In this document: positions 2,983 through 53,643 of the stretch, piece by piece
How positions within the stretch are numbered: position 1 is the first letter of the stretch
Layout: every line of letters begins with the position of its first letter
Source of the DNA: an uncultured Gammaproteobacteria bacterium
Lineage (GTDB): Bacteria > Patescibacteriota > Microgenomatia > Levybacterales > UBA12049
Assembly: GCA_964490105.1 (NCBI GenBank)
Contig: CAZAZU010000001.1
Location: forward strand, 86,706 to 150,705
Reading direction: 5' to 3'
Length of the DNA stretch: 64,000 nt
Notes under the pieces: model-generated
The model's input: only the letters and a program-made list of their open reading frames with translations
Databases searched by the model: none
Told to the model about the DNA's origin: nothing
Program-made: the position numbers and the translations under genes

Positions 2983-3483
2983 ATGATGGAAGAAGAAGCT
3001 AAAAAAACAGGTATTAGCAAAACCATGATTATGGTAGGAATAGCGGTAGTTATCATTATCGCAGCAGTTGCAATCGGAGGTTTTGTTTTAACCAAAAATA
3101 AAGAGCAGGCTGTAGTAGAAGCTCCGCAAGAAAGCGTAACTGGAGCAATGAGTGAGACCAGGGAAGCGGGAACTAAAGCTACATACAAAGACGGTACGTA
3201 TGAAGCAAAGGGTGAATATTCCTATCACTCAGGTACAGAATCAATTGACGTTACAGTAACGCTTGCAAATGGAGTAATTGAGGATGTTGAGGTTGTGGCG
3301 CAAGCAAAAGCACCAACTTCAAAGAAAATTCAGGCAGATTTCATCGCCAACTATAAAGAACAGGTTGTTGGAAAAAATATTGATGAGGTTAATCTTGGAA
3401 AAATTTCTGGATCAAGTTTGACTCCAGTCGGATTTAACGCGGCACTTGAAGATATTAAGGCACAAGCGCAAGCTAGTTCTTAA
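2983..3483 (+). CDS. FMN-binding domain protein (probable ApbE flavinylation substrate), membrane-anchored
   Basis: 166 aa. SD GGAGGTG 6 nt upstream. N-terminal TM helix. FMN_bind-like core (TYKDGTYEAKGEYSYHSGTESIDVTVTLANGVIEDVEVV). Candidate flavinylation motif ISGSSLT, which resembles the canonical SGAT[LI][ST] motif. Sits immediately upstream of apbE. Confidence 0.55.
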   Translation: MMEEEAKKTGISKTMIMVGIAVVIIIAAVAIGGFVLTKNKEQAVVEAPQESVTGAMSETREAGTKATYKDGTYEAKGEYSYHSGTESIDVTVTLANGVIEDVEVVAQAKAPTSKKIQADFIANYKEQVVGKNIDEVNLGKISGSSLTPVGFNAALEDIKAQAQASS

Positions 3484-3485: not shown

Positions 3486-4373
3486 ATGAATTCGTTCCAG
3501 CTGGCTTTTGAAGCAATCGGTACTCAATGGGTAATCGATTGTTTTGATGTACCAATTTCCAAAGAAGAAACCTTGTCCATTATAACCACAAGGATTGAAG
3601 AATTTGATAAGACTTATTCCCGTTTTCGAAAAGATTCAATTGTATGGAAAATATCTGAAAAAACAGGTGAATATGAATTTCCACCTGACGCAAAAGAGTT
3701 ATTTTCTCTTTACGAAAAACTCGAACTTATAACAAATAGCGCCTTCACACTTCTTATCGGAAACACTTTAGTAGAAGCTGGTTATGACTCTGATTATAAA
3801 TTAAAACCAGGAAGAATAAATAAACTACCAAAATCATCAGAAGTTTATTCATATAAGTATCCGTTGTTAACTGTAAAAAAACCATTTATTCTAGATTTTG
3901 GCGGACTTGGAAAAGGTTATTTGATTGATATCATTGCGAATCTTCTTTTAGAAAATAATATTAACACTTTTACGATCGATGGTGGGGGAGACATCTATTA
4001 TAAAAACGATGAAAAAGTTTTAAGTGTAGGACTTGAGCATCCGGGAAATTATAAACAAGTAATTGGGATCGCAAAGATAAAAAATCAAAGTATTGCAGCT
4101 TCTTCTGGAAATAGAAGGGCGTGGGATAGGTTTCACCACATAATAGATGCAAATTCTTTAAAGTCTCCGGATAAAATTCTTGCTACGTGGGTGGTTGCAA
4201 ATGACGCAGTTACTGCAGACGGATTAGCAACATGTTTATTTTTTGTTTCAGAGGAAAAACTATTAAAATATTTTGAATTTGAATACTTAATTCTATATCC
4301 GGATTACTCTTTTAAAAAGTCTAATGGATTTCCTGCTGAGCTATTTATTCAAAAAGAAAATTTAGTACAATGA
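3486..4373 (+). CDS. apbE: FAD:protein FMN transferase (ApbE family)
   Basis: 295 aa. ApbE-like motifs LDFGGLGKGYLID and DGGGD. Stop is TGA. Confidence 0.7.
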   Translation: MNSFQLAFEAIGTQWVIDCFDVPISKEETLSIITTRIEEFDKTYSRFRKDSIVWKISEKTGEYEFPPDAKELFSLYEKLELITNSAFTLLIGNTLVEAGYDSDYKLKPGRINKLPKSSEVYSYKYPLLTVKKPFILDFGGLGKGYLIDIIANLLLENNINTFTIDGGGDIYYKNDEKVLSVGLEHPGNYKQVIGIAKIKNQSIAASSGNRRAWDRFHHIIDANSLKSPDKILATWVVANDAVTADGLATCLFFVSEEKLLKYFEFEYLILYPDYSFKKSNGFPAELFIQKENLVQ

Positions 4374-4377
4374 TATC

Positions 4378-5886
4378 GTGAGGGGAATAGATAATTTACT
4401 TAACAGTTTTACAACTTATAGAGTAGTTCTCTGCGGACTGATTTTTCTCGCATGTATATCCATATTTTTTTCAGGCATAGGAATTGTTCCATTTTCAACA
4501 ATTAACTTGGTTGTTAGTTTGCTTCTTATTCTTGCTTCCTGTTTTATATCAAATTTTATATATGCGAAAATTTTTAAAGTTCAGGTAAATATTGAGTCGT
4601 TCGCAATTACTGGGTTAATTCTATTCTTAATCCTCACTCCATATGAACTGGGAAATTCTCCATTAAATTACATTTTGTTTTCTACAATTGCGATGGGTTC
4701 AAAATATGTTTTGGCAATTCATAAAAAGCATATTTTTAATCCTGCAGCATTTTCCCTTGTAGTAATGGGTTTGTTTGGTGCATATGAGGGTGAATGGTGG
4801 ATTGGAAATACATTCCTATTCCCATTTGTTTTATTGGTAGGACTTTTAATTGTTAGAAAAGTTAGAAAGTTTAGTCTTTTCATTTCTTATTTTATCTTTG
4901 CGGTTATTTCAATTTCTATTTTTGCTTATTTGAATGGATCAGATGTATTAAAAATATTAAGTCAGGCAATTCCATCATGGCCTCTTCTTTTTTTGGGAAC
5001 CATTATGCTGACAGAACCTTTAACTATGCCGCCGAAAAGACGTCTTCAAGTATTTTATGGCGCTTTGGTGGGTTTTCTAACGGGTGTGCAGTTTAATATC
5101 GGCCCTTTCTTTATGACATCTGAGACTGCACTTATTCTAGGAAATATTTTTTCCTATTTTGTAAGTTTTAGAAAAAGATTAATTTTAGAATTTAAAGAAA
5201 AAATTGAATTGTCTCCAAATATCTACGAATTTATTTTTAAAAAACCTTCATCGCTTTCATTTCTGCCAGGACAATATTTTGAATGGACACTTGGTAACAG
5301 AAGACCAGATTCTAGAGGAGTAAGGAGATATTTTACTATTTCATCAAGTCCTACTGAAAATGACATAAGGCTTGGTGTAAGACTTGAAAAAGACAAAGGA
5401 AGTAGTTTTAAAAAATCACTTTTAAATTTAGCTCCAGGACAAAAAATTTATGCAGGAAATTTATCAGGGGATTTTACGCTTCCAAAAAATAAAAATGAAA
5501 AAATAGTTTTCATAGCGGGCGGAATTGGTATAACACCTTTTAGAAGCATGATTAGTTTTATGTTGGATAAAAATGAAAACAGAGACATAGTTTTATTTTA
5601 TTCAAATGCAAAACCCGAGGATTTTGTTTATAGAGATATATTTTACTCTGCAAGGCAGAATGGTTTAAAAACTGTTTATATTTTAACTAAAGAAACGACA
5701 GAAAATTGGAATGGATATACAGGTAGATTAACAGCTGAAATTATTAAAAAAGAAGTTTCTGATTTTACCAATAGAACATATTATCTTTCTGGGCCCATTG
5801 CAATGGTGGACAATTATAAAAAACTCTTAAGAAGGTTGGGTATAAAACAAAATAAAATAATTACAGATTATTTCCCCGGATTCTAA
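4378..5886 (+). CDS. Polytopic membrane protein fused to FNR-like oxidoreductase (FAD_binding_6 + NAD_binding_1)
   Basis: 502 aa, GTG start. About 6 predicted TM helices in the first 260 aa. Then a ferredoxin-NADP reductase-type module: RRYFTISSSP (RxY[ST] FAD motif) and IAGGIGITPFRSM (NAD(P)-binding GGxGxxP). Confidence 0.6.
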   Translation: MRGIDNLLNSFTTYRVVLCGLIFLACISIFFSGIGIVPFSTINLVVSLLLILASCFISNFIYAKIFKVQVNIESFAITGLILFLILTPYELGNSPLNYILFSTIAMGSKYVLAIHKKHIFNPAAFSLVVMGLFGAYEGEWWIGNTFLFPFVLLVGLLIVRKVRKFSLFISYFIFAVISISIFAYLNGSDVLKILSQAIPSWPLLFLGTIMLTEPLTMPPKRRLQVFYGALVGFLTGVQFNIGPFFMTSETALILGNIFSYFVSFRKRLILEFKEKIELSPNIYEFIFKKPSSLSFLPGQYFEWTLGNRRPDSRGVRRYFTISSSPTENDIRLGVRLEKDKGSSFKKSLLNLAPGQKIYAGNLSGDFTLPKNKNEKIVFIAGGIGITPFRSMISFMLDKNENRDIVLFYSNAKPEDFVYRDIFYSARQNGLKTVYILTKETTENWNGYTGRLTAEIIKKEVSDFTNRTYYLSGPIAMVDNYKKLLRRLGIKQNKIITDYFPGF

Positions 5887-5993
5887 TAGAAAAAAATAAT
5901 CGATTTTTATCGTACGATTAGTAAATGCTGCAATTTAAATATTGACAGAAATATATAATTGTTCATTTGACTTGGAAATAATTAAAGAGTATT

Positions 5994-6494
5994 TTGAGAT
6001 TAATGGCTCTAATTGAAGCCTACGCTGGGTTTTTAGCAAAACAAGCTGAATTGGCTAAATATCAGAAAATGGCAAGAATTCTTACTCTTTCTCAGAGAGA
6101 GGCTGTTATCTCTCTTCTTCCAGTAATTCCAGAAATAAATGATAAGACCAGAGTGATTTTTAATGGTGCACAGATAGCTTTAATTGGTCAGGTTGTAGAT
6201 AGATTTGTAAATGGACAAGCAGAAGGACAGGGGGTTGATCTTATAGTTGCAAACAATTCTGTACCAGGCCCGCATCTAGATGGTTTATCCGAATTTGTTG
6301 CTGGAGAATTTTTTTTAATGAGTAGTGGAGGGATTAGAACAGTTCACGAGACGCCAATTTATAGGATTCTTTCAAGCGGTGGAGATAATTCTACTAGGAT
6401 AATCTTAAACACAGAAAGAGTAGACGATAGGCGAAGAATAAAAGCATCTAGAGATCCGGGAAATATGACATTTGTTAATCTAAGTTTAGGATAG
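5994..6494 (+). CDS. hypothetical protein (island A)
   Basis: 166-aa ORF with TTG start and a possible ATG at 6003. Elevated GC relative to flanks. No recognisable motif. Confidence 0.3.
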   Translation: MRLMALIEAYAGFLAKQAELAKYQKMARILTLSQREAVISLLPVIPEINDKTRVIFNGAQIALIGQVVDRFVNGQAEGQGVDLIVANNSVPGPHLDGLSEFVAGEFFLMSSGGIRTVHETPIYRILSSGGDNSTRIILNTERVDDRRRIKASRDPGNMTFVNLSLG

Positions 6495-6517
6495 TAAAAA
6501 TTAAAGGAGGTGAAAAT

Positions 6518-6688
6518 ATGAAAGATAATGCTGGGCTTTCAGCCATTTATTGCACAGGAATAATAGGAGCCGCGATTTATTATATTCAGGTAACTTCTGG
6601 ATTTCAGGAGACAATCTGGGGTCTAATAAAAGCCCTATTCTGGCCAGGAGTTTTCGTTTACGAAGTAATGAAAATGCTTAGCCTTTAA
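6518..6688 (+). CDS. small membrane protein (56 aa), not in supplied ORF track
   Basis: ATG at 6518 preceded by the strong SD AAAGGAGGTGAAAAT. Translation MKDNAGLSAIYCTGIIGAAIYYIQVTSGFQETIWGLIKALFWPGVFVYEVMKMLSL shows two hydrophobic segments. TAA stop at 6686-6688. Confidence 0.4.
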   Translation: MKDNAGLSAIYCTGIIGAAIYYIQVTSGFQETIWGLIKALFWPGVFVYEVMKMLSL

Positions 6689-6741
6689 CTCCTAGGATTA
6701 CCCAAATTAGCAGGTATCTCTTGTGGGCCTCTAGTCAATCA

Positions 6742-6770
6742 TTGACCGAGTCTTATAGTAATTGTATAAT
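6742..6770 (+). promoter_or_regulatory. sigma70-type consensus promoter TTGACC-N17-TATAAT directly upstream of the 6779 gene (leader <=2 nt)
   Basis: -35 at 6742-6747, -10 at 6765-6770, ATG at 6779. Confidence 0.55.
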
Positions 6771-6778
6771 CTACGCTT

Positions 6779-7594
6779 ATGGTTTCAGAAGTATTTGATG
6801 GTCGCGGTCAAGATGGTGGGAGTCCAGCGCCACGCATTTTATTTCCTTTAGCTCAAGTAGAAGAAGGATCAAGTATGGTTGTGGCAAGAAGCGTAGGCGA
6901 ATATGCTCCTAATCCAGATGTGCCCCAAGGATTTAGCCTGCATCCTGATTTCTCTCACCTAAAAGTATTATTAAATGAAGATGGAAATCCGCATGTGCTT
7001 GTGCAGCCAGACGGTGAAATGATTCATTTAGCAAATAGAGATTATGATGATACAGATCTTTCCTTAAATAAATTTCTCTCAGGTAGCTTAACTGCTAAGC
7101 TAAATTCAGGAACGGATCCAATTTCAGTTCTTGATGTTGGGGGAGGCTATAAATCGTCTACAGCAATTGAAATAGGAGCAAGTAACGAGAGATTCAGAGT
7201 TACAAATGTGGACATTTTATTAAAAAATGCAACTCCAGTTTCAGGAAAAGCTCCTCGAAATGTGACACCTGTTTTAGGAGATGCCAGGAATTTACACGTC
7301 CCTGATAATTCCCAGGATGTTGTTTTTTCATCGAGACTTTTAATTTATATGAATGAGGAAGATTTTATTGCAGCATTTAAAGAAATCGTAAGAGTTTTGA
7401 AACCGGGCGGAGAAGCGATTTTGTTTGATTTGCCCATGGAAGCAGGGCGAAGTACACGCTTGACGCAAAGACTATCACGGGAATTAAATGTCGATGTGCC
7501 TGATTGGGAAATTGAAAGTTTTATAGGGATTGGATATGTAGTTTTAGTTTCAAAGCCGGAAAAGTTGGAAAAATCGGTTGCCGCAGAAGTTTAA
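6779..7594 (+). CDS. class I SAM-dependent methyltransferase
   Basis: 271 aa. Motif I VLDVGGGY. Motif II-like VVFSSRLLIYM. Motif III LKPGGEAILFD. Confidence 0.5.
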   Translation: MVSEVFDGRGQDGGSPAPRILFPLAQVEEGSSMVVARSVGEYAPNPDVPQGFSLHPDFSHLKVLLNEDGNPHVLVQPDGEMIHLANRDYDDTDLSLNKFLSGSLTAKLNSGTDPISVLDVGGGYKSSTAIEIGASNERFRVTNVDILLKNATPVSGKAPRNVTPVLGDARNLHVPDNSQDVVFSSRLLIYMNEEDFIAAFKEIVRVLKPGGEAILFDLPMEAGRSTRLTQRLSRELNVDVPDWEIESFIGIGYVVLVSKPEKLEKSVAAEV

Positions 7595-7595
7595 T

Positions 7596-8219
7596 CTAGC
7601 CTCTATAGCCTCTTCTTTGACCAAATACATCATTACTTGCGATAGGCGCAGAAAAATCCTTAATCCGTAGAGTTCTTGTGACGCTGCCAAATCTTGGTTG
7701 AACTGGACCAGTAACATGATCTAAAAAATTCCCAGGAGTAATAGGTCTGTTAGGATCAAAAGGAGGAGGAGAAGTAGGATCTTGATAAGTTTGGGTAACT
7801 GGTTCTGGTTCAGGACGAGCTAACTGCTGTGTAAATAATGAAGCATAGTCGCTAAGGGATCTAAAAGCCATGGTAGGATTTAATCCGCGAAGAGTCGCGA
7901 GGAATTCGTCCATCCTACTTCGCTCAACTGGCGATAGAAATGGATAGTTATCAATTCTTGCGAGCGTAACTAATTTTACGTCGAGAATTCTTTTAGTCAT
8001 TTGATCCTGCATATGAGCTATTTGTTTTTCTGAAAGCCCAGTTAAGTCAATTCCACTGATTACCGCTTCTGCCATGGATGCATCAATAGTACCGTGTCTT
8101 CTTCGTGTAGGATCCTCAGGATCTGGCTCTGCGAGTTTTAATGCTATAACATCTTCTACAGCCTTCCAATCAATAGGATCTTTATCTTTTTTCCCTCTTC
8201 TAGGTTCCTGATCTACCAT
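7596..8219 (-). CDS. hypothetical protein (island A), Pro-rich C-terminus
   Basis: 207-aa ORF. Its own TTGACA-N17-TATAAA promoter sits at 8228-8256 on the minus strand, with an 8-nt leader. Confidence 0.35.
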   Translation of the reverse strand: MVDQEPRRGKKDKDPIDWKAVEDVIALKLAEPDPEDPTRRRHGTIDASMAEAVISGIDLTGLSEKQIAHMQDQMTKRILDVKLVTLARIDNYPFLSPVERSRMDEFLATLRGLNPTMAFRSLSDYASLFTQQLARPEPEPVTQTYQDPTSPPPFDPNRPITPGNFLDHVTGPVQPRFGSVTRTLRIKDFSAPIASNDVFGQRRGYRG

Positions 8220-8227
8220 AAGGGATG

Positions 8228-8256
8228 TTTATACTACTAAATATTTGTTCTGTCAA
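8228..8256 (-). promoter_or_regulatory. sigma70-type promoter TTGACA-N17-TATAAA for the 7596-8219 gene
   Basis: On the minus strand: ttgaca gaacaaatatttagtag tataaa catccctt ATG. Confidence 0.5.
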
Positions 8257-8268
8257 CTAAATTTAGCC

Positions 8269-8297
8269 TTGACATAATCTTATAGTATTTATATAAT
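8269..8297 (+). promoter_or_regulatory. sigma70 consensus promoter TTGACA-N17-TATAAT, 6 nt upstream of the ATG at 8304
   Basis: -35 at 8269-8274, -10 at 8292-8297. Preceded by TTTAGCC at 8262-8268. Confidence 0.55.
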
Positions 8298-8303
8298 CCG
8301 CGC

Positions 8304-8687
8304 ATGGAAAAAAGCGATAGAAAAACACCGCCAGAAGAATTAAGAAGACAGGCTTCAATTAGACTTGCGCAGGTGAAAGCAGCAGGATTAGATGGTCAGG
8401 TAGGAGAAGTCGCGCGTTTTATGGCTTACGCTGCAGGATTTGAGATGGAAGCATTCGCCACTTATCCAAGACAGGATTTTAAAAATAGAAGAAAAAGCGG
8501 GATGGCTGCATTTAGACTTTTCTCAGAAATTTCCGACCATCAGCATGTGGTGACTTTTGGAACATTAATGCTTGAAATTCTTGATGGAAATTTATCCCGT
8601 GATGCTAAAAGAGAGATTAAAACAGGCATTAAGAAATCTAGAGCTCAGCTTCCTCAAAGCCCGATACCTCCAGTACAGAATATTTAA
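8304..8687 (+). CDS. hypothetical protein (island A)
   Basis: 127-aa ORF, leaderless-type promoter, no clear motif. Confidence 0.35.
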   Translation: MEKSDRKTPPEELRRQASIRLAQVKAAGLDGQVGEVARFMAYAAGFEMEAFATYPRQDFKNRRKSGMAAFRLFSEISDHQHVVTFGTLMLEILDGNLSRDAKREIKTGIKKSRAQLPQSPIPPVQNI

Positions 8688-8715
8688 GTTTTAGCCTTGA
8701 TTCTGAAGAAAGAAT

Positions 8716-9312
8716 CTATTTTGGTAGAAACACATATCCGTTTTGGATTCCCTGTGGGCTTTTTATAGCGATTCCTTCAGTGACTAAACTATCCCAAATT
8801 CTCGTTGCAGGAGCAGAAGGAGATAAGCCGGAATGAAGTGGAAGGCGATATGACATTTGAGAAAGAGCATTCATCACAAAAAGTCTTCTTCTCCCAAGGC
8901 CTTGTTTTTCAAAACCACTTTTAGTGTCCGTATATCCTACGAAAGGCTTACCTTTATAAAGTGGATGATTATTCGAAGCCACGTATCCACTCCCAACAGT
9001 TTCTCCATTTTTATCAATATCTACTAGAAATATGTTTTGTGGATTTAAAGGTGCGCCGTCTAACATTTGATCTATGGCGTATCTAGCGACAAAAGTAGTG
9101 CTCCCATCATCGTGAGAAATCCTGCTTACTTCCTGAAATTTTTTATAATCAAACACGCTTTGATCATCATATTCTGCATAAGGTTTTACCTCAGCAATAA
9201 AAGCTTCAGGGAGTTCGGTTATAGGTTCAATTCTTCCAGCAGGGAAATATCTATGGAATACTTCTGCATCTGATTCTTGTGGCGCGTCTCCTGAAATAGG
9301 TACATCACTCAT
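8716..9312 (-). CDS. hypothetical protein, possible GNAT-like acetyltransferase fold
   Basis: 198 aa. FEKQGLGRRRLFVMNAL resembles the GNAT motif A (Q/R-x-x-G-x-G/A). Weak evidence. Confidence 0.3.
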   Translation of the reverse strand: MSDVPISGDAPQESDAEVFHRYFPAGRIEPITELPEAFIAEVKPYAEYDDQSVFDYKKFQEVSRISHDDGSTTFVARYAIDQMLDGAPLNPQNIFLVDIDKNGETVGSGYVASNNHPLYKGKPFVGYTDTKSGFEKQGLGRRRLFVMNALSQMSYRLPLHSGLSPSAPATRIWDSLVTEGIAIKSPQGIQNGYVFLPK

Positions 9313-9339
9313 AAAATCATTTTACCATTCTTTAAATTC

Positions 9340-9367
9340 TTGACACCGAAGCAAAAGAAAGTATAAT
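9340..9367 (+). promoter_or_regulatory. sigma70 consensus promoter TTGACA-N16-TATAAT, 8 nt upstream of the ATG at 9376
   Basis: -35 at 9340-9345, -10 at 9362-9367. Confidence 0.55.
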
Positions 9368-9375
9368 CACTCCTT

Positions 9376-9771
9376 ATGGCAAATGAGAGAGATCCATTGT
9401 CAGGATCAGATTTTGAAATTGCAGATTATCATGCTAGAGCTATGGAATACGCAGATAAAGCAGACGGTAGATTACCTCTTGAGCCTGGAGATTCTATAGA
9501 TGCACGCAAATTAATGAATGCGGCGTTTTGTTTTGAGCAGGCAGTATTTTGGCTTATTCCTGACTTAAGAACAATTCCGAGAAGTCAGGCAGCAGTAAAT
9601 GCAGTGAGTCTGGCATTTAGAGGCAGAGATTATGTAGGAGCGATAAGTTTTGGACAAGAGGCCATGGATGACATGGGAATACACATGTCTGAGGTTTCAA
9701 GAACTAGAATTGAACGAATGATTGAAGAATCAATTGATAAAATTATTGCGCCTTCTATCCGCAAGCCATAA
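9376..9771 (+). CDS. hypothetical protein (island A)
   Basis: 131-aa ORF, no motif recognised. Confidence 0.35.
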   Translation: MANERDPLSGSDFEIADYHARAMEYADKADGRLPLEPGDSIDARKLMNAAFCFEQAVFWLIPDLRTIPRSQAAVNAVSLAFRGRDYVGAISFGQEAMDDMGIHMSEVSRTRIERMIEESIDKIIAPSIRKP

Positions 9772-9789
9772 CACAAAAATAAGGGAGCT

Positions 9790-10182
9790 TTAGCTAGAGC
9801 TTTGATCGGGGTTTTTAGAAAGTATTTCTCTTATTTTCTCAATTAATAACTCAGGTTCTGTAGCCTGTTTTAAAAGAAAGAAAGAAGCGCTATTCTTATA
9901 CACCATATCAGTTAATTCATTTGTAGGATCAAGATTTGTTAGTATTATAACCGGCACATTTGCACCCCATTGGTCTTTGCGAAGAGCTTCAAGTACGTTA
10001 ACTCCATTCATCTTTGGCATTCTAACGTCCAGAATTATGACAGATGGATGATTTTCCAAAGCCATTCTTAGTCCCAATTCTCCATCCTTAGCCCAAGCAG
10101 CACCATATCCCTCCGCAAGAATTCTAGTTAAATAAATATCCGCTTGAACTTTATCATCTTCAATTAATAATATTTTAGCCAT
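9790..10182 (-). CDS. stand-alone response-regulator receiver (CheY-like) domain protein
   Basis: REC hallmarks KILLIEDD, ILDVRMPKMNG, ILTN and a conserved Lys region. I place the start at the internal ATG (MAKILLIEDD, 10182). The ORF-track TTG at 10218 is actually the -35 TTGACA of the promoter TTGACA-N17-TATATT (10190-10218, minus), which leaves a 7-nt leader. Confidence 0.6.
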   Translation of the reverse strand: MAKILLIEDDKVQADIYLTRILAEGYGAAWAKDGELGLRMALENHPSVIILDVRMPKMNGVNVLEALRKDQWGANVPVIILTNLDPTNELTDMVYKNSASFFLLKQATEPELLIEKIREILSKNPDQSSS

Positions 10183-10284
10183 TACAGCAAATATATGCTT
10201 AGCGTTGGCATTTGTCAATCAGGGGAGATATACATAAGCAAGGGATTCATGCTATGCTGAATGTAGAGGAGGTAAATAATAAAA

Positions 10285-10491
10285 ATGGCAAATAAAAAGA
10301 AAAACGGCGTAAATCCATTATTAGCAGCAGTGACTGGAATAGTAGTGGGAGCAAGTGCAGCAGTTGTCGGAGTTGTAACTCTTAAAGATAATAAAAATCT
10401 TAAAAATGTGACTGGTGTTGTGAATAATTTAGTAAGTAAAAGCGGAGAACTTACTGGCCTTATCAAAAAAGACGTTAAAAAGAAAAAATAA
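10285..10491 (+). CDS. small Lys-rich membrane protein
   Basis: 68 aa. SD AGGAGG upstream. Hydrophobic core LLAAVTGIVVGASAAVVGVV. Followed by a terminator. Confidence 0.45.
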   Translation: MANKKKNGVNPLLAAVTGIVVGASAAVVGVVTLKDNKNLKNVTGVVNNLVSKSGELTGLIKKDVKKKK

Positions 10492-10511: not shown

Positions 10512-10539
10512 AAGAACCGCTTAATAGCGGTTCTTTTTT
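10512..10539. terminator. rho-independent terminator hairpin (AAGAACCGC-TTAATA-GCGGTTCTT) plus T-tract
   Basis: Perfect 9-bp stem, 6-nt loop, then TTTTTT. Lies between the convergent genes 10285-10491 and 10538-12208. Confidence 0.65.
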
Positions 10540-12208
10540 ATATATTGGGGTCTTCGGAGAATTCATCTAGAATTACTTCGTGCTGTTCATGATTCACATC
10601 TCGTCTTAAAGCATCACCTGCAGGTGTCTGAGGAATAGGAGTTAGTGTTGGTAGCGGAGGAGGAAGTGTTTGATTTATATCTCCAACTTTTATAATTTTT
10701 GCTACTGAAGGGACGTCATTATTATTAAGAATAAAAAGCATGTAGTGTCCTGGAGGTGTAGCTCCAGCATTATTCGTAGCTGTTACTTCAATTTCTCCTG
10801 ATCTTTTAACAAAACTTAGGGCATTAATTCGTTGAGACTGATTAAATGAGTGGGTTACAGATCCTAATCTGATCCATCTTACTGTTTTTATGTCAGAAGC
10901 GTCCGGTGTTACAACCTTAAATTTTTGGCCATAATTGACCTGGTTAGGAGCAGAAGCGATAGTAGGGCGAGGTCCTTTAAATAAATATGCCGGAGAATAG
11001 ATCTCCATGCTTGTTCCGCCAACTCTTTCTCCTCCTCCTGAGAAAACTCTCCCGTCAGGAAGAAGAAGAGCTGTTGAATGATAACCTCTATAGACTGTTT
11101 GGGGGGCTACTTTTCTCCAGTTTCCCGTGGTGGAGTTCCAGATCTCAGGAGTTAATACAGCATTCTCGGGTTCATCTTTTACGCCTGAGGTTCCTCCCGT
11201 TACGAGAACTTCGCCTGTCGGGAGAAGAGTTGTATTAGCATGTCTTCTTTTTATAGACATAGAGCCTGTATACATCCATTTTGGTGTCGTAGCTCCTAAG
11301 CTAATTATTTCTGCTGAATTAGTTCCTCCGCCTACTATTAGAATTTTATTATTTGCAAACATTACCGAACTTCCTGCACCCCTTGATACACCATGCCGAG
11401 TTTTAATAATAGGTCCCCATTTACCTGTACCATTTGTATCTAGGATTCTGGTATTTGCTGTATTTCCTGCCATAAATACTTTTCCGCTAGATAATTGATA
11501 CATAAATGGATAAAGTGGCTGTAGTAATTTCGCAGTGCTCAAGGTTCGCCATTTGTTTGTTCTAATATTGTAAACTTGAGGAATTCGGTTATAAACATCT
11601 TTCTCAATTGTTCCTGATGTGGTTAGTAAATCTCCGTTAGTTAAGGTAGTAACAGTTGGATACCACCTTTTGTCGTTCATATTTGCGACTCTTGTCCAGG
11701 AATTAGTAGCAGGATCATAAAAAGAGGCATGCTGAAGCCCAATAGGAGTAACTACATGACCGCCCGGGACAAATAATTTTCCATCTGCAGTTAGAGAATG
11801 ACCTGCACAGAAAATATTATATCCGGCTTTTGGCGCAGCTTCTGTAGCGCCAGTTTCGGGATCCCAAAAATATGCATTATCACCCTCACTTGAAGGCCAA
11901 GTCATTACTTTTCCATTTGGAAGTAGAGAGGTGTGGGTAGCTTTTACTGGAAGCTCTGTTACCTCTGACCACTGACCTACAATAGCAGGGTCTCCTGATT
12001 GAGCAAAAGTATTAGTATTTGTTCCTTTAGTCGTATCTATAATTTTTGGACCCAAGACAGCAGCTATTACTAGAGCAGGTAGTAGTAATATAAATGTACC
12101 CCCAGCTAGTGTCTTTAATTTATGTTGGGACAATTTTTTTAAGAGGTTTGATTTATTAGTTTTTGGAATAATAGAATTAGACTGCGGATTATCTAGAGAA
12201 TCGCTCAT
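10538..12208 (-). CDS. secreted Kelch-repeat beta-propeller protein, galactose-oxidase/glyoxal-oxidase-like with C-terminal E-set (DUF1929-like) domain
   Basis: 556 aa. N-terminal TM/signal. Repeated Kelch-like blades (GG..., W..V..M). C-terminal Ig-like beta domain. Family inferred from repeat architecture. Confidence 0.5.
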   Translation of the reverse strand: MSDSLDNPQSNSIIPKTNKSNLLKKLSQHKLKTLAGGTFILLLPALVIAAVLGPKIIDTTKGTNTNTFAQSGDPAIVGQWSEVTELPVKATHTSLLPNGKVMTWPSSEGDNAYFWDPETGATEAAPKAGYNIFCAGHSLTADGKLFVPGGHVVTPIGLQHASFYDPATNSWTRVANMNDKRWYPTVTTLTNGDLLTTSGTIEKDVYNRIPQVYNIRTNKWRTLSTAKLLQPLYPFMYQLSSGKVFMAGNTANTRILDTNGTGKWGPIIKTRHGVSRGAGSSVMFANNKILIVGGGTNSAEIISLGATTPKWMYTGSMSIKRRHANTTLLPTGEVLVTGGTSGVKDEPENAVLTPEIWNSTTGNWRKVAPQTVYRGYHSTALLLPDGRVFSGGGERVGGTSMEIYSPAYLFKGPRPTIASAPNQVNYGQKFKVVTPDASDIKTVRWIRLGSVTHSFNQSQRINALSFVKRSGEIEVTATNNAGATPPGHYMLFILNNNDVPSVAKIIKVGDINQTLPPPLPTLTPIPQTPAGDALRRDVNHEQHEVILDEFSEDPNI

Positions 12209-12277: not shown

Positions 12278-13375
12278 ATGAATTTATCTATTGGAATTGT
12301 GGGCTTTCCAAATGTAGGGAAATCCACGCTTTTTAATGCTTTACTAAAACGCCAACAGGCGCTTGTTGCTAATTATCCGTTTGCGACAATTGAACCAAAT
12401 GTCGGAGTTGTTCCAGTTCCTGATTCCCGTTTGGAAAAAATTGCCGAGATAACTCGCGATGAGGAAAAAATGGGGAGTTTGCCTCCGATTAAGCCTGCAA
12501 CTGTTAATTTCGTTGACATCGCGGGCTTAGTGAAAGGAGCTTCGGAGGGAGCAGGTTTGGGCAATAAGTTTCTTTCTCATATTCGTGAAGTCTCTGTTAT
12601 CGCTCATGTAGTCAGAGCTTTTGAAGACTCGGATATTGTAAGAGAAGGTTCGGTGGGAGTTAAAGAAGATTACGAGACAATTAATACAGAGCTTATGCTT
12701 GCAGATATGCAATCAGCTGCGAATCAGGACGGGAGACTTAAAAGTAATGATCCGAAGAAAAACTTATTTGCAAAAATAATTGCAGGCTTGGACAGGGGAA
12801 CACCGGTTAGGGATATTGATTTTACAAAAGAAGAACAAGAAGAGGTAAATAACATGTCATTTCTAACTAATAAACCTGAAATAGTGGTTTTAAATGTTTC
12901 AGAAGCTGATTACGCTTCGGAAAAAATTGACGGAATCTCTAAGGATTATTCAGAAAAATTAAATATAGGAATTGAAAAAGTAGTAGTAATTTCTGCAAAA
13001 ATCGAAGCAGAACTTGCAAGTTTATCTAACGAAGAGCAAGTAGAATATTTAAAAGATTTAGGGCTTGAATTTTCAGGACTTCAAAGATTGATTCAAAAAG
13101 CTTATCAAGAACTTGGTTTAATTTCATTCTTAACAGCAGGGGAGAAAGAGGTAAGAGCCTGGACAATCCGCAAAGGGTTGAATGCTCAGTTAGCGGCAGG
13201 AGAAATTCACACAGACTTTATAAAAAGATTTATAAAAGCAGAAGTCGTAGGGTTTGACGCGTTTGTCGAGTTCTCAGGATGGAAGGGAGCACGCGAAAAT
13301 GGAAAAGCGCAATTAGAAGGACGGGATTACATAATGCGTGACGGTGACGTAGTTGAATTTAAAATCGGAACCTAG
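12278..13375 (+). CDS. ychF: ribosome-binding ATPase YchF (Obg-like GTPase family) with C-terminal TGS domain
   Basis: 365 aa. P-loop [17 protein letters not shown]. Motif [11 protein letters not shown]-terminal TGS ([10 protein letters not shown]). Confidence 0.85.
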
Positions 13376-29920: not shown

Positions 29921-30232
29921 GTGAATGTTATGGACGATCAAAATAATCCAACGGTTGGAACTCCAGACCCAAATGCAGGTGGAATGCCACCTCAAGATCC
30001 AGGAGTAGGAGGGGGAATGCCAGCACAGGATCCTAATGCAGGGGGAGGAGTAACTCCACCACCAGCAGAAAATCCAGGAGCAGGAGAAGCACCGGCAGTT
30101 GACCCAAATCAGGGGTGGACACCGCCACCTGCACCCTCAACGCCACCAGCAGCTGACCCAAGCGCAGGAGTACCTGCCGGAGAACCAGCTCAGGGTGGAG
30201 GAGACCAGGGAACAGGACAAGGAGTAGTTTAA
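29921..30232 (+). CDS. Gly/Pro-rich low-complexity repeat protein
   Basis: 103 aa. SD AAGGGGGTGA. Repeating D-P-N-A-G-G-G-(M/V)-P units. The nucleotide sequence shows approximately 30-bp degenerate tandem repeats. Confidence 0.4.
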   Translation: MNVMDDQNNPTVGTPDPNAGGMPPQDPGVGGGMPAQDPNAGGGVTPPPAENPGAGEAPAVDPNQGWTPPPAPSTPPAADPSAGVPAGEPAQGGGDQGTGQGVV

Positions 30233-30303: not shown

Positions 30304-30313
30304 TTAATGCTAG

Positions 30314-30397
30314 TACCGGGGGAGGGATTCGAACCCTCAAGAGTTTTAAGCCCACGGGTTTTTGAGACCCGCGTGTATACCGTTCCACCACCCCGGC
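30314..30397 (-). tRNA. tRNA (type II, long variable arm), anticodon CAA -> Leu
   Basis: Reverse complement GCCGGGGTGGTGGAACGGTATACACGCGGGTCTCAAAAACCCG...GAGGGTTCGAATCCCTCCCCCGGTA. Acceptor stem 7 bp. T-loop TTCGAAT. Anticodon loop CTCAAAA. CCA not encoded. Confidence 0.65.
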
Positions 30398-38006: not shown

Positions 38007-38037
38007 AAAGGGAAGTGGAGGCTACTAATAGACCAAA

Positions 38038-38906
38038 ATTAAACTCCTATTCTATTATCAGGCACCAAATCGAAAAACATTTTAGGCACAAATTGAGGCT
38101 AAGCATTCTAAAAAATGTCATTAAATAAGACAGGGAAGAGGAGAGTGCTATGTGAGGCTAGTGATATAGTTTGATATGGGTAAGGGTGATATAGTGTGAT
38201 ATAGTTATTCAGCAAATTATTATAGGACTTAAATGGACAAATTTTAGCCTCATGCATGTAATTTCACGGGTTTTTACAACAATTTTCACAACCTCGCAGG
38301 TCCATACTCACGCCTACAGAGTACCGTAGATAGTTATGTTCTCAGATCGGGAAATGCGACGTGCGTTCATTATACGAAGATTATACTTTCTCTCCTTGCT
38401 CGCTATATTGGTCCTACACAAATCGAAAAAAATACGAACGCTGAGTTAATAACATTTTGAGGCTAAAAAATGTAGTTTAGCTTGATAGATCAATCTAAAT
38501 GTGATCTATGTGGATAACTCTACTTGTAGGGTACTAAGTGGTTTAGGATATTAAGCAAATTACTAACCATTTACACGTCCTAGGGAGTGATCCGTCCTTA
38601 AAACTAAACGTAGTGACTTATATCATTCTCTCTATAAGGATATAACTTTAAAAAAAAGACATATTAGGCGCTAGGAAGTAGAAACTGATAACGTCGTAGA
38701 ATAATACTTTTACGACGTCACGGAGGCTAGTATACCCGGAGAAGACCCTTTTTTCTTTCCAATTTTTCTCCTATATTTATTGAAATTTTATAATTCGTTT
38801 TACTTTCCGCTGTCAGATCTCTCTATTTATTTGAATTGCTTAAAATTATTCCGCTCCCCTGCTATAGGATACTATTTTATTTATAATTTGAGGCTAAATG
38901 AGGCTA
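38038..38906. repeat. ORF-free region with 8 dispersed copies of GAGGCTA(A) in both orientations, 3 tandem GTGATATAG, an inverted repeat and a DnaA-box-like TGTGGATAA
   Basis: GAGGCTA at 38038, 38115, 38174, 38265(rc), 38459, 38723, 38890 and 38900. GTGATATAG at 38181, 38206 and 38216. IR GATAGATCA-N9-TGATCTATG at 38484-38510. TGTGGATAA at 38509-38517. AT-rich block 38749-38815. Confidence 0.6.
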
Positions 38907-38984
38907 ATTTTCAATTACTATCACACTCATCCAGCCATAGAGTAGTGGTTATTCACGGACTTTTAAAGTAGAAAGGTTTATTGG

Positions 38985-39443
38985 CTATTTCTTTTTCGGT
39001 TCTGGAGCTCGTACAACTAAGGAGCGATTTATGTATACATCTGTGGGGATTTGCGGTTGACCGTTTTTATCAAGTCGTACCATTCCATCATTAATGCGAA
39101 TGTCAGGATCATCAGCGTTTAATTTAACTCGCACCCATGAGCCATTTTCAGCATAACCTGATACTTCAAATCTTTCTCCAATAGGAGCTTTTCCAATAGG
39201 AGCAGAAACAGTAGATGGACCGCCGCGAAGAGTTGCTCCTTCATTTTCTACTAGTTGATCCATGATTGCACTATTATAACTTCCAACCTTGACATGGGTT
39301 AAGGGTTTCGGTGCTTCTGGTAAAGGCGCTGCAAAGGAAAGGGTTGTGGAGAGCGCAACAGCTCCGACAGCTCGTCTGTGTCTAAAAGTGAACCTGGCAG
39401 CTTCAGCTATAGATTTTGGTATTGATCTTAATCTGTCTGACAT
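38985..39443 (-). CDS. secreted SH3b-domain protein (island B)
   Basis: 152 aa. Signal peptide with RR (RFTFRHRRAVGAVALSTTLSFAAP). SH3_3-like core ATLRGGPSTVSAPIGKAPIGERFEVSGYAENGSWVRV. Higher GC than flanks. Confidence 0.45.
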   Translation of the reverse strand: MSDRLRSIPKSIAEAARFTFRHRRAVGAVALSTTLSFAAPLPEAPKPLTHVKVGSYNSAIMDQLVENEGATLRGGPSTVSAPIGKAPIGERFEVSGYAENGSWVRVKLNADDPDIRINDGMVRLDKNGQPQIPTDVYINRSLVVRAPEPKKK

Positions 39444-39486
39444 AGGTGTATATTATAACTATAGGCTCTGGGTATGTCAAGTTAAA

Positions 39487-40260
39487 TTATGACTGTGGAT
39501 TTCCAACCTGGGTGGTTACAGAGTGTCCTGCGATTGATGCTATGCCAACTTGATCAGCAGGAACGACTGTTTCTCCAAGTTCATTTTTACCAGTTAGCTG
39601 ACCATTTTCGAATCGAGCACTTATTATACCGCCGCTTGAGTCAATGGGAGTGATATGAGAGTCTGTAGAACTACTGTGACTTATAAAGCCAACTGTCTTA
39701 GTGATGTCTCCTAAGGGGCTTTTGTGTTCAAGTTCTACTGCAAGCCAAGGAGCTTCTAGAATTCCAGACGAAGGATCGGTGGCCATGGCAATCGGTGTAT
39801 TCTCGATAATAAATGGGGTTTTTCCATCCCACGCAGTCCCATTAATTGATATTATATCGTTCATTTCGATATAATTGTCTCTTCCTTCTTGTCTATCATC
39901 AAAATCAGGCATATAAGGATCATGCCGGATTACTAAATCTTTTTCACCCTCTTTATGAATCTCAACAAGATACTTATTCGTATCAATTTGTTTAAGCATA
40001 CTATGATAGCTCTGAAAGGATTCTGCGGGAGGTTTACTAACCTCGTCAACTATATGTGCGACACCTGCTCCTCCGCCTGCAATTATTCCTAATGCCAGGG
40101 CTATGTTTCTAATTCTGTGACGCACGCTTGGGCCGTGGTCTTTAGATGATGTTATTCTTCTTGCCTGCTGAATCCTGGGATTGTTAGAGCTTACTTGATC
40201 GATTGATCTAAAAGCTCCTTGTGATGGTCTAATGTCTCGCCCATGTGATCCTTCTGGCAT
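39487..40260 (-). CDS. hypothetical membrane-anchored protein (island B)
   Basis: 257 aa. One TM (IALALGIIAGGGAGVAHIV) after a basic N-terminus. Confidence 0.35.
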   Translation of the reverse strand: MPEGSHGRDIRPSQGAFRSIDQVSSNNPRIQQARRITSSKDHGPSVRHRIRNIALALGIIAGGGAGVAHIVDEVSKPPAESFQSYHSMLKQIDTNKYLVEIHKEGEKDLVIRHDPYMPDFDDRQEGRDNYIEMNDIISINGTAWDGKTPFIIENTPIAMATDPSSGILEAPWLAVELEHKSPLGDITKTVGFISHSSSTDSHITPIDSSGGIISARFENGQLTGKNELGETVVPADQVGIASIAGHSVTTQVGNPQS

Positions 40261-40291
40261 GATTAATTTATATCATCCTTAGGATCTTATT

Positions 40292-40699
40292 TCAAACTTT
40301 TGGAAATTGAACCGGAACCTTTCTATCAACTTGAGTAAATAATTCCCACGCTTTGGCAAGTGAGGCTGGCCTTAAAACTCGAGAGTCTGGTTGACCTTGT
40401 CGATATTCGTACTCTGTTACATCTCTGCCATCTATGGCAATTCCTTTCATTTGCATGGGATTTTCAGTATCTGGGGTTTCAAAGAAATATACATATCTCG
40501 TCACATGCGGATGGTGCGTTAATCTTCCCTCAGTTATAACAGGTATGCTGCCAAGTCTTGTGCCAAGTACATTTACCGATCTTCCTCTTACGTCTTCATG
40601 ATCGTTCGTCATAGTAGAAGTAACTTTCTCAAGGATCCTATCGGTTAAAATTTTTGGATTACCTCTTTCGTGAATTGATATCGCTAACTCAGTAAACAT
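40292..40699 (-). CDS. hypothetical protein (island B)
   Basis: 135 aa. Own promoter TTGAAT-N17-TATAAT on the minus strand at 40708-40736, with an 8-nt leader. Confidence 0.35.
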   Translation of the reverse strand: MFTELAISIHERGNPKILTDRILEKVTSTMTNDHEDVRGRSVNVLGTRLGSIPVITEGRLTHHPHVTRYVYFFETPDTENPMQMKGIAIDGRDVTEYEYRQGQPDSRVLRPASLAKAWELFTQVDRKVPVQFPKV

Positions 40700-40707
40700 A
40701 AGTTGCC

Positions 40708-53592: not shown

Positions 53593-53643
53593 ACAGCTTT
53601 GATTCCCTTGATTTATATCACACTTTTAAATACTATTATAGTA

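Follow-up and report, generated by a model that had tools for sequence, protein, structure and literature searches.

The 4.3-kb stretch at positions 5890–10220 of the 64-kb window (the whole stretch of DNA analysed) is probably part of a plasticity locus that is native to a Levyibacteriota (CPR/Patescibacteria) genome and specific to its lineage. The source organism is a tiny-genome Levyibacteriota (CPR) bacterium, and the locus was found between a gene for an FNR-like membrane oxidoreductase and ychF. In the proposed explanation, a scaffold composed of the I1-I2 operon, I3, I4, the receiver gene (I8) and a gene for a 68-aa membrane peptide would be vertically inherited under purifying selection, and a slot between I4 and the receiver gene would differ in content in every related genome. 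The slot genes would be autonomous single-gene cassettes, each made up of a promoter and a leaderless ORF. The present slot would thus hold I5 behind a chimeric I3-type promoter, the inverted I6 gene for a predicted GNAT-fold acyltransferase, and I7 behind a canonical module (Table 1).

Table 1. Genes, promoters and candidate partial modules of the locus (positions in the window; promoter scores are matches to the 12 consensus positions)
Feature	Coordinates	Strand	Description
I1-I2 operon promoter	5967..5995	+	TTGACT-17-TATTTT, 9/12; ATG 7 nt downstream
I1	6003..6494	+	163-aa hypothetical protein; scaffold gene
I2	6518..6688	+	56-aa membrane peptide, two hydrophobic segments; Shine-Dalgarno AAGGAGGTG at 6504-6512
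I3 promoter	6742..6770	+	TTGACC-17-TATAAT, 11/12; ATG 8 nt downstream
I3	6779..7594	+	Class I SAM-dependent methyltransferase, 271 aa
I4	7596..8219	-	207-aa hypothetical protein, Pro/Glu-rich ends; scaffold gene bordering the cassette slot
I4 promoter	8228..8256	-	TTGACA-17-TATAAA, 11/12; ATG 8 nt downstream; kept in all relatives
I5 promoter (first slot gene)	8269..8297	+	12/12; ATG 6 nt downstream
I5	8304..8687	+	127-aa strain-specific putative cassette gene; helical-looking from sequence
Possible partial module copy	8694..8716	+	GCCTTGAttctGAAGaAAGA, directly after I5 stop; 15/23, noise level
I6	8716..9312	-	198-aa predicted divergent GNAT-fold protein, motif A QGLGRRRL; strain-specific here
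I6 promoter	9319..9346	-	GTGTCA-16-TAAAAT, 9/12; ATG 6 nt downstream
I7 promoter (canonical cassette module)	9337..9367 (-35 to -10: 9340-9367)	+	tcTTGACACCGAAGCAAAAGAAAGTATAAT, 12/12; ATG 8 nt downstream
I7	9376..9771	+	131-aa strain-specific putative cassette gene; helical-looking from sequence
Possible degenerate partial module	9765..9789	+	Between I7 and receiver stops; 15/23, weak
I8	9790..10182	-	Single-domain CheY-like receiver, 130 aa
Receiver promoter	10190..10218	-	TTGACA-17-TATATT, 11/12; ATG 7 nt downstream
68-aa Lys-rich peptide	10285..10491	+	One hydrophobic segment; Shine-Dalgarno sequence; scaffold gene

Conserved frame and variable slot

All eight ORFs of an earlier note on this DNA were recovered, with two starts revised: that of I1 is most likely the ATG at 6003, giving 163 aa, and the receiver begins not at TTG 10218 but at ATG 10182, in agreement with the public gene call. 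The alternating layout described there applies to six genes, I3 to I8 (+ - + - + -), and I1-I2 form a two-gene operon.

The comparison covered six genomes of one narrow clade, the window and five relatives. FNR-like proteins of the five related loci, one of which is labelled Levyibacteriota, are 69–83% identical, and in these five genomes the interval from the FNR-like gene to the YchF gene is a plasticity zone. A gene-by-gene map showed that I1, I2, I3, I4, the receiver gene and the 68-aa peptide gene recur in order, and the same arrangement was present in three independent assemblies. As regards conservation of all eight genes in place, five (I1, I2, I3, I4 and the receiver gene) recur, although none of the relatives has all five. 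Each recurring gene was found in two to five related Levyibacteriota genomes, with synonymous divergence and purifying selection; pS was 0.37–0.67 for I2, the receiver gene and the 68-aa peptide gene, compared with 0.53–0.69 for the flanks, and dN/dS was 0.03–0.29. On this comparison, the five recurring genes appear to be lineage-specific native content and not recent cargo.

The I2 protein is 100% identical across the window and four relatives (all five genomes carrying I2), yet pS is 0.37–0.65. I3 shares 63–66% identity with its counterparts in related loci L002 and L004, and L003 and L004 encode the receiver and the 68-aa peptide with 82–86% and 93–95% identity, respectively. For I4, only four relatives were found among 5.8 billion proteins, every one in the same clade. 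I1 falls into two allelic types, being 83% identical to L002/L004 and 46–48% to L003/L005. Against L004, I1 and I4 have a pS of 0.35, below that of the flanks (0.53–0.61), and they also diverge far more from L003, so that the scaffold itself cannot be called purely clonal.

I5, I6 and I7, which span 8304–9771 between I4 and the receiver gene, are missing in all five relatives, where unrelated genes fill the slot. An accessory element is therefore present, but it measures ~1.5 kb and not 4.3 kb. No homologue of I5 was present in the related loci examined. One relative of I7, with 61% identity, was found on a 2.5-kb contig with a different gene context, and the I6 family has at least 335 cluster representatives elsewhere. 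The Kelch gene is missing from L003 and L004, and L002, L004 and L006 carry 3.4 kb of additional genes after the FNR-like gene.

Promoters and the proposed cassette module

The five near-consensus promoters reported previously were all confirmed, with an ATG 6–8 nt past the -10. Five of the 12 sites in the window scoring at least 11/12 fall within the 6.8% of its length that the region occupies (binomial p=7.5e-4), and ~2.3 such sites are expected in a random 64 kb. Of the 44 genes in the window that come first in a transcription unit, at least 24 have a -10 ending 5–9 nt before the start, compared with 15% of control ATGs, and I4 and the receiver gene, overlooked by the strict scan, raise the leaderless-type first genes to 26 of 44. 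A Shine-Dalgarno sequence precedes just three of the 44. The leaderless grammar is common to the whole window and not specific to the region, as the remark that the region shares the host promoter grammar had implied, and near-consensus versions are enriched in the region. With a -10 ending 6–9 nt before the ATG, transcription should begin at or beside the start codon, giving an mRNA expected to be translated without a leader, as predicted for the majority of first genes here. From their sequence, the slot-gene promoters should be near-consensus and sigma-70-type, with starts predicted to be leaderless.

The I3 promoter, including its spacer, is kept in L002 and L004, and the receiver promoter in L003 and L004. 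The -35 and -10 hexamers of the I5 promoter are kept in all five genomes, but this promoter looks chimeric because in the window its spacer is instead similar to the I3 promoter (80% identity, 35 nt). The -35 elements of the I6 and I7 promoters overlap as a palindrome.

Many cassettes of the clade have one ~35-bp promoter module, gCCTTGACACCgAAGCAAAAGaGnGTATAAT, in common ahead of unrelated ORFs, and every slot gene in the relatives has a TTGACA-16/17-TATAAT promoter and an ATG of its own. Behind the module in L006 and L008 lies an I2 gene predicted to be leaderless, whereas I2 in the window has a Shine-Dalgarno sequence. In the five-genome alignment past I4, conservation extends over both promoter hexamers (-35 and -10) and stops at the start codon. 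L003 and L006 have a single cassette in common (136/133 aa), at array positions that differ between the two, and its DNA homology runs exactly from the -35 to the stop codon. An nhmmer model of the module identified 16 sites at E<0.01, all within variable regions, though 11 of the 16 had been used to build it and the truly independent held-out matches number four. At this threshold, the housekeeping flanks had no module, and 9337..9367 is the sole copy in the 64-kb window. Identity among module spacers is 72–75%, even where the promoters serve non-homologous ORFs, compared with 31% for other consensus promoters.

Partial modules were found after the last cassette in L004 and after I2 in L008. 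The two candidates in the window (Table 1) are only suggestive, as ~7 matches of 15/23 are expected per random 64 kb and their positions were noticed post hoc; where the alignment places that at 9765..9789, L004 has a clear partial module. Cassettes would be gained, lost and reordered by recombination in or next to common promoter modules, and a gene pool common to related CPR bacteria would be their source. Homology from promoter to stop is also expected where genes are gained and lost in the ordinary way and compactness is selected for, and the conserved module spacer could be an operator instead of a recombination substrate.

The locus resembles flexible genomic islands (marine replacement/additive islands, defence/accessory hotspots) in its fixed site between conserved genes and in content that varies per related genome, with unrelated genes in one slot. 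However, the slot here is tiny (1.5–3 kb) and built of single-gene units that are predicted to be leaderless and have a common, portable promoter module; its composition is not atypical and mobility genes are absent. Integron gene-cassette arrays likewise have ordered, mostly co-oriented single-ORF units that vary in content and order among relatives, with a short conserved sequence at each unit boundary. Here, no IntI integrase adjoins the locus, attC hairpins are absent, the boundaries being unstructured (z about 0), and each cassette has its own promoter, the conserved 5' element itself, without reliance on a common Pc. The vsp, vlp and vsa loci of Mycoplasma are also strain-variable loci of small-genome, host-dependent bacteria, in which clustered near-identical promoters precede divergent coding sequences. 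In contrast, the ORFs here are mutually unrelated, and inspection of the products indicated neither signal peptide nor lipobox and no repetitive surface proteins; phase-variable repeats and an invertase are absent.

Composition, mobility and alternative readings

The earlier note had read the whole of 5890–10220 as a compositionally distinct, horizontally acquired phage or plasmid remnant, which is now very improbable. The GC content of 38.4%, against 36.7% for the window, is at the 74th percentile of same-size windows, and the 100-nt samples put at 45–49% GC measured 22–46%, mostly 33–44%. The region seemed GC-rich because its left neighbour (4001–6000) is unusually AT-rich (30.5% GC). GC3 was 0.26 in the eight genes and 0.27 elsewhere (p=0.39), and 26% of same-size windows were at least as deviant in tetranucleotides, so the region is no outlier. 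Composition was thus uniform by all three measures, one of the two outcomes named beforehand as together arguing against an island. Only GC1 and GC2 differed, reflecting amino-acid make-up; the enrichment of G, A, R and P (p=0.0015) and depletion of K, N, I, F and Y (p=0.0036) in the eight proteins favour foreign origin, as does the lack of homologues beyond the narrow clade for most of them. However, relatives carry five of the eight genes in synteny, at a synonymous divergence like that of the flanks. As had been observed, the region contains no integrase or transposase, and no tRNA or flanking direct repeat was found at it; the sole tyrosine recombinase of the window, XerC/D-like, is 31 kb distant and no recombinase adjoins the locus. 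Searches with tblastn gave no match among 50,697 phage and 72,556 plasmid records, no I4 relative was found in IMG/VR, and the hypotheticals had no match in PHROG. Defence hotspots typically consist of variable genes flanked by conserved core genes, as here, and the slot might be a hotspot for uncatalogued anti-phage or anti-host genes, with the methyltransferase and GNAT as modifying enzymes. ParE/Phd in the neighbourhood of one relative, a sub-threshold match of an L004 slot protein to the Xre/MbcA antitoxin domain (E=0.007) and a weak PADLOC match of the methyltransferase to mad2 (E=2.7e-6) point the same way. Such an islet is nevertheless improbable, as PADLOC reported nothing for I1, I2, I4, I5, I6 and I7 and matched only generic domains in the methyltransferase and receiver, the genes are all small and monocistronic, and nuclease, ATPase, helicase and restriction partner are all absent; the methyltransferase is of the small-molecule/protein type (Methyltransf_11/UbiE-like) and not a DNA methyltransferase.

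Alternatively, the module may be an operator-bearing regulon promoter through which the slot genes are jointly controlled by one sigma factor or regulator that may act downstream of the orphan receiver, with differences in gene content due to ordinary gain and loss independent of the module. The spacer is kept even where the ORFs are unrelated and in genomes near synonymous saturation, suggesting selection on it, and the module is confined to the locus, where the conserved receiver gene adjoins the slot. However, the receiver has no DNA-binding domain in Pfam, the spacer is non-palindromic and unstructured, and a regulon alone leaves the array-end partial modules lacking a -10 and the chimeric I5 promoter unexplained; it is therefore rated as unlikely, although the regulon and cassette readings are compatible and not mutually exclusive. 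It is hardly to be expected that I6 and either I5 or I7 make up a toxin-antitoxin pair of the GNAT type, like TacT/AtaT, despite the modelled GNAT fold of I6, its accessory location and the small, helical-looking proteins on both sides. I6 is monocistronic and convergent or divergent to its neighbours, not co-transcribed with them, Pfam gave no RHH/DUF1778 or other antitoxin domain for I5 or I7, and no conserved partner gene lies beside I6 homologues elsewhere. Typical GNAT toxins are also shorter than I6, which has 198 aa with an N-terminal extension.

Predicted gene products

In the preferred cassette reading, the products would be accessory proteins of the cytoplasm whose expression is strong and constitutive. 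Among them may be enzymes that modify small molecules or proteins (GNAT and methyltransferase here, NUDIX at other points of the interval in relatives) and would tune strain-specific interactions. This functional reading is weak because no fold or family was detected for I1, I4, I5 or I7; I1 had no match in Pfam, PDB, PADLOC or PHROG. Pfam supported only the methyltransferase and receiver assignments among the eight ORFs. I3 matched Methyltransf_11 with 50.5 bits (cut-off 21.2), with the domain at residues 117–215, motif I VLDVGGG and a preceding N-terminal extension of ~100 aa.

The suggestion that I6 is a possible GNAT was borne out by an AlphaFold model (pLDDT 91.5) for which GNAT-fold proteins dominate the listed Foldseek PDB matches, indicating a divergent GNAT fold. 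Motif A (Q-G-L-G-R-R) aligns with aminoglycoside 2'-N-acetyltransferase, and 11 of 64 I6 family members touch Pfam Acetyltransf_1. However, I6 itself has no Pfam match and carries extra N-terminal elements, its Foldseek E-values are only ~2.5e-3 (TM 0.35–0.46), and the family is uncharacterised, with no conserved genomic context.

I8 matched Response_reg with 67.2 bits (cut-off 30.2) and shares with CheY-like single-domain response regulators all five phospho-acceptor pocket residues (D9, D10, D52, T82 and K105, read directly from the sequence), but the 64 kb contain neither a cognate histidine kinase nor chemotaxis genes. Its description as an orphan was upheld, as an H-box regex had no match in the window and the sole HATPase_c match among the listed Pfam matches, for called genes to ~61 kb of the window, is GyrB. 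The 68-aa peptide gene, which lies outside the coordinates first given for the region yet is part of the conserved frame, is followed by an intrinsic terminator at 10512–10535.

Gene content and base composition of the 5890–10220 region

All eight ORFs listed in the earlier note were found in the sequence between positions 5890 and 10220, and are designated here I1 to I8 (see table). The start of I8 was placed at ATG 10182, 7 nt past the −10 hexamer, in agreement with the public gene call; TTG 10218 is the start given by a mechanical ORF list. The ends of the three convergent gene pairs (7594/7596, 8687/8716 and 9771/9790) are 1, 28 and 18 nt apart, respectively. As these pairs are driven by strong convergent promoters and no terminator-like hairpin was found between their ends, overlapping antisense transcripts should arise. 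No RNA elements were detected in the region using Rfam, either with the window at gathering thresholds or with two sub-regions at E≤1.

Genes in and next to the 5890–10220 region
Feature	Coordinates	Strand	Length (aa)	Pfam domains
I1	6003–6494	+	163	
I2	6518–6688	+	56	
I3	6779–7594	+	271	Methyltransf_11
I4	7596–8219	−	207	
I5	8304–8687	+	127	
I6	8716–9312	−	198	
I7	9376–9771	+	131	
I8	9790–10182	−	130	Response_reg
68-aa peptide	10285–10491		68	
Kelch/galactose-oxidase-like gene	10538–12208			Glyoxal_oxid_N, GO-like_E_set

Only I3 and I8 of the eight proteins were recognised by Pfam, and searches of PADLOC, PHROGs and NCBIfam added nothing for the other six. I3 matches Methyltransf_11 with 50.5 bits (cut-off 21.2) and has a motif I readable as VLDVGGG, predicting a class I SAM-dependent methyltransferase; it matched no specific NCBIfam equivalog at its cut-off. 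I8 is a CheY-like receiver (Response_reg, 67.2 bits) that retains all five pocket residues (D9, D10, D52, T82 and K105). It was described previously as lacking a partner kinase, and indeed a search of all frames of the window for an H-box motif was negative. The listed precomputed Pfam matches of window genes to ~61 kb include no HisKA domain, and the one HATPase_c match in that list is GyrB. Sequence and profile searches of the PDB with I1, I4 and I6 gave nothing significant (best E 0.03–1). I4 has only four relatives, all from this clade, and I7 has one (61% identity), which lies on a short contig in another gene context.

I2 includes two hydrophobic segments, and its protein sequence is identical in five genomes despite synonymous divergence (pS) of 0.37–0.65. 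An invariant protein across near-saturated synonymous divergence marks I2 as an unusually constrained small membrane peptide. More distant homologues (43–75% identity) are present in other metagenomes, and a metagenome scan recovered a single close locus, the rearranged L008.

The region had been considered a GC-rich island on the basis of 100-nt samples of 45–49% GC, but the actual samples are mostly 33–44%. GC content is 38.4% for the region and 36.7% for the window, placing the region at the 74th percentile among windows of the same size, and the contrast reported earlier is due to an unusually AT-rich gene to the left (4001–6000, 30.5%). GC3 is 0.26 for the eight genes and 0.27 for the other 61 (p=0.39), and the tetranucleotide delta of the region is equalled or exceeded in 26% of same-size windows. 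The eight genes differ from the others at codon positions 1 and 2 alone, which is explained by the make-up of their proteins, where Gly/Ala/Arg/Pro are more frequent (p=0.0015) and Lys/Asn/Ile/Phe/Tyr less frequent (p=0.0036). A GC or tetranucleotide island spanning the whole region is thus ruled out, and a compositional signature of recent foreign origin is absent. This correction is relevant to any scan that relies on eyeballed GC.

Promoters and leaderless starts

The five consensus promoters reported previously were located at the expected positions, with −35/−10 scores of 11–12 out of 12 and an ATG 6–8 nt past the −10 hexamer. Weaker promoters precede I1 (5967–5995) and I6 (9346–9319). 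Sites scoring at least 11 number 12 in the window (~2.3 expected at random), and five of these fall within the region, which makes up 6.8% of the window (p=7.5e-4). This density follows from the arrangement of the genes as monocistronic units on alternating strands.

The suggestion that the region uses the same promoter grammar as the host was borne out, as the leaderless layout is found throughout the window and is not special to the region. Of the 44 genes that come first in their transcription units, at least 24 have a −10 hexamer ending 5–9 nt ahead of the start, compared with 15% of control ATGs. The strict scan giving this count missed I4 and I8, and with both added the number is 26. Only three of the 44 are preceded by a Shine-Dalgarno sequence. 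Leaderless initiation therefore appears, from the sequence, to be the norm for genes at the head of transcription units in this Levyibacteriota genome, and the consensus matches predict both transcription starting at the ATG and leaderless translation. In the searchable literature, no directly relevant account was found of leaderless translation in CPR/Levyibacteria, or of variable loci there. The ychF gene, the product of which is reported to modulate translation of leaderless mRNA (PMC12641178), is located at 12278–13375 in the window.

A conserved scaffold framing a variable slot

The arrangement of the region is shared by three independent assemblies. The neighbouring FNR-like gene (69–83% identity) led to five related loci (L002 to L006), one of them labelled Candidatus Levyibacteriota. 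A further locus with a Lentimicrobiaceae label (L007), sharing 26% identity over part of the FNR-like protein, is not close kin and was left out. According to gene-by-gene mapping, all of the related loci have a plasticity zone that runs from the FNR-like gene to ychF. Three additional genes are present past the FNR-like gene in L002, L004 and L006, and the position of a NUDIX gene shifts among the related intervals. The Kelch/galactose-oxidase-like gene, which has its own leaderless promoter (12245–12216, 11 out of 12), had been taken as the right-hand housekeeping boundary. The gene is itself variable: neither L003 nor L004 has it, and in L008, a further metagenome locus, its position has changed.

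The genes recurring in the same order in the relatives are I1, I2, I3, I4, I8 and the 68-aa peptide, and I5, I6 and I7 are missing from all five. The pS values for I2, I8 and the 68-aa peptide (0.37–0.67) are similar to those of the flanks (0.53–0.69), and dN/dS is 0.03–0.29 for all conserved genes, indicating purifying selection. Recurrence, flank-like pS and purifying selection together argue that most of the supposed island is old, native, lineage-specific content. Sporadic presence among close relatives, as expected of a horizontally acquired island, is seen for I5–I7 and not for I1, I2, I3, I4 and the receiver gene, which are syntenic in the relatives. Only 8304–9771 is strain-specific.

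Within the scaffold, I1 and I4 each fall into two allelic types, with 83–91% identity to L002 and L004 and 46–58% identity to L003, L005 and L006, whereas the flanking housekeeping proteins share 80–88% identity with L002, L003, L004 and L006. This sequence pattern suggests that allelic replacement or diversifying selection may have acted inside the scaffold.

Three or four small genes fill the slot between I4 and the receiver gene, and they differ from genome to genome. The encoded proteins are of 127, 198 (inverted) and 131 aa in the window, 93, 136, 121 and 196 aa in L003, 249, 253 and 164 aa in L004, and 168, 266, 133 and 248 aa in L006. A separate TTGACA-16/17-TATAAT promoter serves every slot gene, and the ATG follows 6–9 nt downstream. 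The alignment of the five genomes past I4 spans both hexamers of the first slot promoter and breaks at the start codon. One cassette, comprising a promoter and a leaderless ORF, is common to L003 and L006 (136 and 133 aa) at differing array positions, and its DNA homology starts precisely at the −35 hexamer and runs to the stop codon.

Many slot promoters are alike beyond the hexamers and share a module of ~35 bp with the consensus gCCTTGACACCgAAGCAAAAGaGnGTATAAT. Spacer identity is 72–75%, including between promoters of non-homologous ORFs, compared with 31% for the other consensus promoters of the window. An nhmmer model of the module identified 16 sites at E<0.01, every one within variable regions. 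The housekeeping flanks contain none at any locus, and the 64-kb window has a single site, the I7 promoter (9337–9367). In L006 and L008, I2 also lies behind the module and is leaderless in layout, and in the window it is led by a Shine-Dalgarno sequence. Held-out matches include partial copies without a −10 hexamer, located directly past the last cassette of L004 and past I2 in L008. The I5 promoter has the conserved −35 context, with a spacer and −10 hexamer resembling those of the I3 promoter (80% over 35 nt), and looks chimeric from its sequence. Possible degenerate partial modules past the I5 and I7 stop codons (8694 and 9765) have noise-level scores, and their positions alone are suggestive. 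An exact 16-mer from the module core gave at least 120 single matches in IMG/VR, which by rough estimate is about what chance predicts for a collection of that size, and is uninformative.

Toxin-antitoxin-type genes are present in the variable regions of two relatives: in L145, ParE/PhdYeFM adjoins the I4 homologue (1439–1970), and in L008 a small ORF (3170–3475) has sequence resemblance to a ribbon-helix-helix protein. These fit an interval that collects accessory genes.

Origin of the slot genes and possible roles of the module

As had been noted, no integrase or transposase lies inside the region, and no such Pfam domains were found within ~8 kb either side. No tRNA insertion site was identified, the only tRNA in the window being at 30313, and a repeat search revealed no att-like direct repeats around the region. 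Neither composition nor mobility genes thus mark it as a horizontally acquired island. A phage or plasmid remnant had also been proposed, but a tblastn search with I1, I2, I4, I5, I6 and I7 (concatenated) returned no matches in 50,697 phage and 72,556 plasmid records, the hypothetical proteins had no significant PHROG matches, and no relatives of I4 were found in IMG/VR. Hence, the remnant reading found no support in those homology tests that could be run. The alternative proposal of a defence module fared no better, as PADLOC-DB 2.0 gave no matches for the five hypothetical proteins or the 56-aa peptide and generic-domain matches only for the methyltransferase and the receiver, so the region does not correspond to an anti-phage defence system known to that database.

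The nature of I6 was examined separately, as a GNAT had been considered possible. No relatives were detected by word-indexed search, and an exhaustive HMMER search recovered 335 cluster representatives, the nearest with 37% identity. A single-sequence AlphaFold model was unusable (pLDDT 46.7), whereas an alignment of 64 sequences produced a model with pLDDT 91.5. Among the PDB matches listed by Foldseek for this model, most were GNAT-fold proteins and the majority acetyltransferases (probability up to 0.99, best E=2.5e-3, TM 0.35–0.46). Across the family alignment, motif A of I6 (EKQGLGRRRL) hardly varies (G138, R142 and R143), and it aligns with RRQGIGRQ of the aminoglycoside 2′-N-acetyltransferase AAC(2′). 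I6 itself has no Pfam match, and 11 of the 64 relatives match Acetyltransf_1 weakly (best E=4e-4). The model, the Foldseek matches and motif A support the GNAT fold, so I6 is predicted to be a divergent GNAT-fold protein and may catalyse acyl transfer. A GNAT toxin-antitoxin pair, in which an RHH/DUF1778 protein and a GNAT form a bicistron, was rejected, as I6 is monocistronic and on the opposite strand to the genes on either side. No antitoxin domain is present in I5 or I7, and I6 homologues elsewhere, some of them on short contigs, have no conserved neighbour or partner.

The locus resembles an integron in being an array of single-ORF cassettes that differs between relatives. However, integrons have an IntI-type recombinase with attI and Pc, and here no recombinase is present within ~30 kb, a XerC/D-like tyrosine recombinase gene being located at 40990–41925. 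Integron cassettes carry attC at their 3′ ends, whereas a repeat search detected no inverted repeat at the cassette boundaries here; no attC-like or terminator hairpins were found between cassettes, where folding is no better than that of shuffled sequence (z −0.8 to +0.2). Integron cassettes are also promoterless, whereas each cassette of this locus has its own promoter.

A native flexible locus has the best support. In this reading, the slot is filled with autonomous cassettes, each consisting of a promoter and a leaderless ORF, and is enclosed by the conserved scaffold; many of the cassettes use the module, which is portable. The cassettes would move by recombination at or beside the modules. 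It is possible, if rather unlikely, that the module is both an expression signal and the crossover site for cassette exchange, making the locus an integrase-free, promoter-delimited array and a functional analogue of an integron. Homology breakpoints at the −35 hexamer and at the stop codon, partial modules without a −10 hexamer closing arrays, one seemingly chimeric promoter, and the module's position 5′ of unrelated ORFs and of an otherwise Shine-Dalgarno-led I2 are all compatible with such a dual role. If so, an ultra-small CPR genome could draw on a common pool of accessory genes that are leaderless and strongly expressed. The principal competing reading, in which the module acts as the operator of a regulon, is compatible with most of the data, though an operator role does not exclude exchange of cassettes.

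Variable slots between conserved genes and integron cassette arrays are both well known, and this locus resembles both. CPR/Patescibacteria have tiny genomes with few recognisable mobile elements. The locus is a variation on these known arrangements in that it combines single-gene units with a leaderless promoter module, shared by many of the units and marking their boundaries, in an ultra-small CPR genome. Unrelated single genes behind a shared near-consensus leaderless module represent a testable candidate mechanism for strain-level variation in CPR/Patescibacteria.

Elsewhere in the window, the stretch at 38007–41925 resembles a second cluster of this kind and is the strongest tetranucleotide outlier. 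It includes three minus-strand genes for Gly/Ala/Arg/Pro-rich hypothetical proteins (38985–39443, 39487–40260 and 40292–40699) with consensus leaderless promoters (that at 39480–39452 scoring 12 out of 12), which adjoin an ORF-poor stretch of ~1 kb (38007–38984, no Rfam match) and the XerC/D-type recombinase gene. An ORF of ~100 aa at 29921–30232, which the public assembly annotates as a gene, is almost wholly of Pro/Gly/Ala/Asp/Gln low complexity with 55.8% GC in a 37% genome, has no Pfam domain or convincing Rfam match, and adjoins tRNA-Leu(CAA) (30313–30397). A type IV pilus/type II secretion-like cluster, of a kind typical for CPR episymbionts, is located at 53599–61069 and includes two T2SSE ATPases, T2SSF and several N_methyl pilins.
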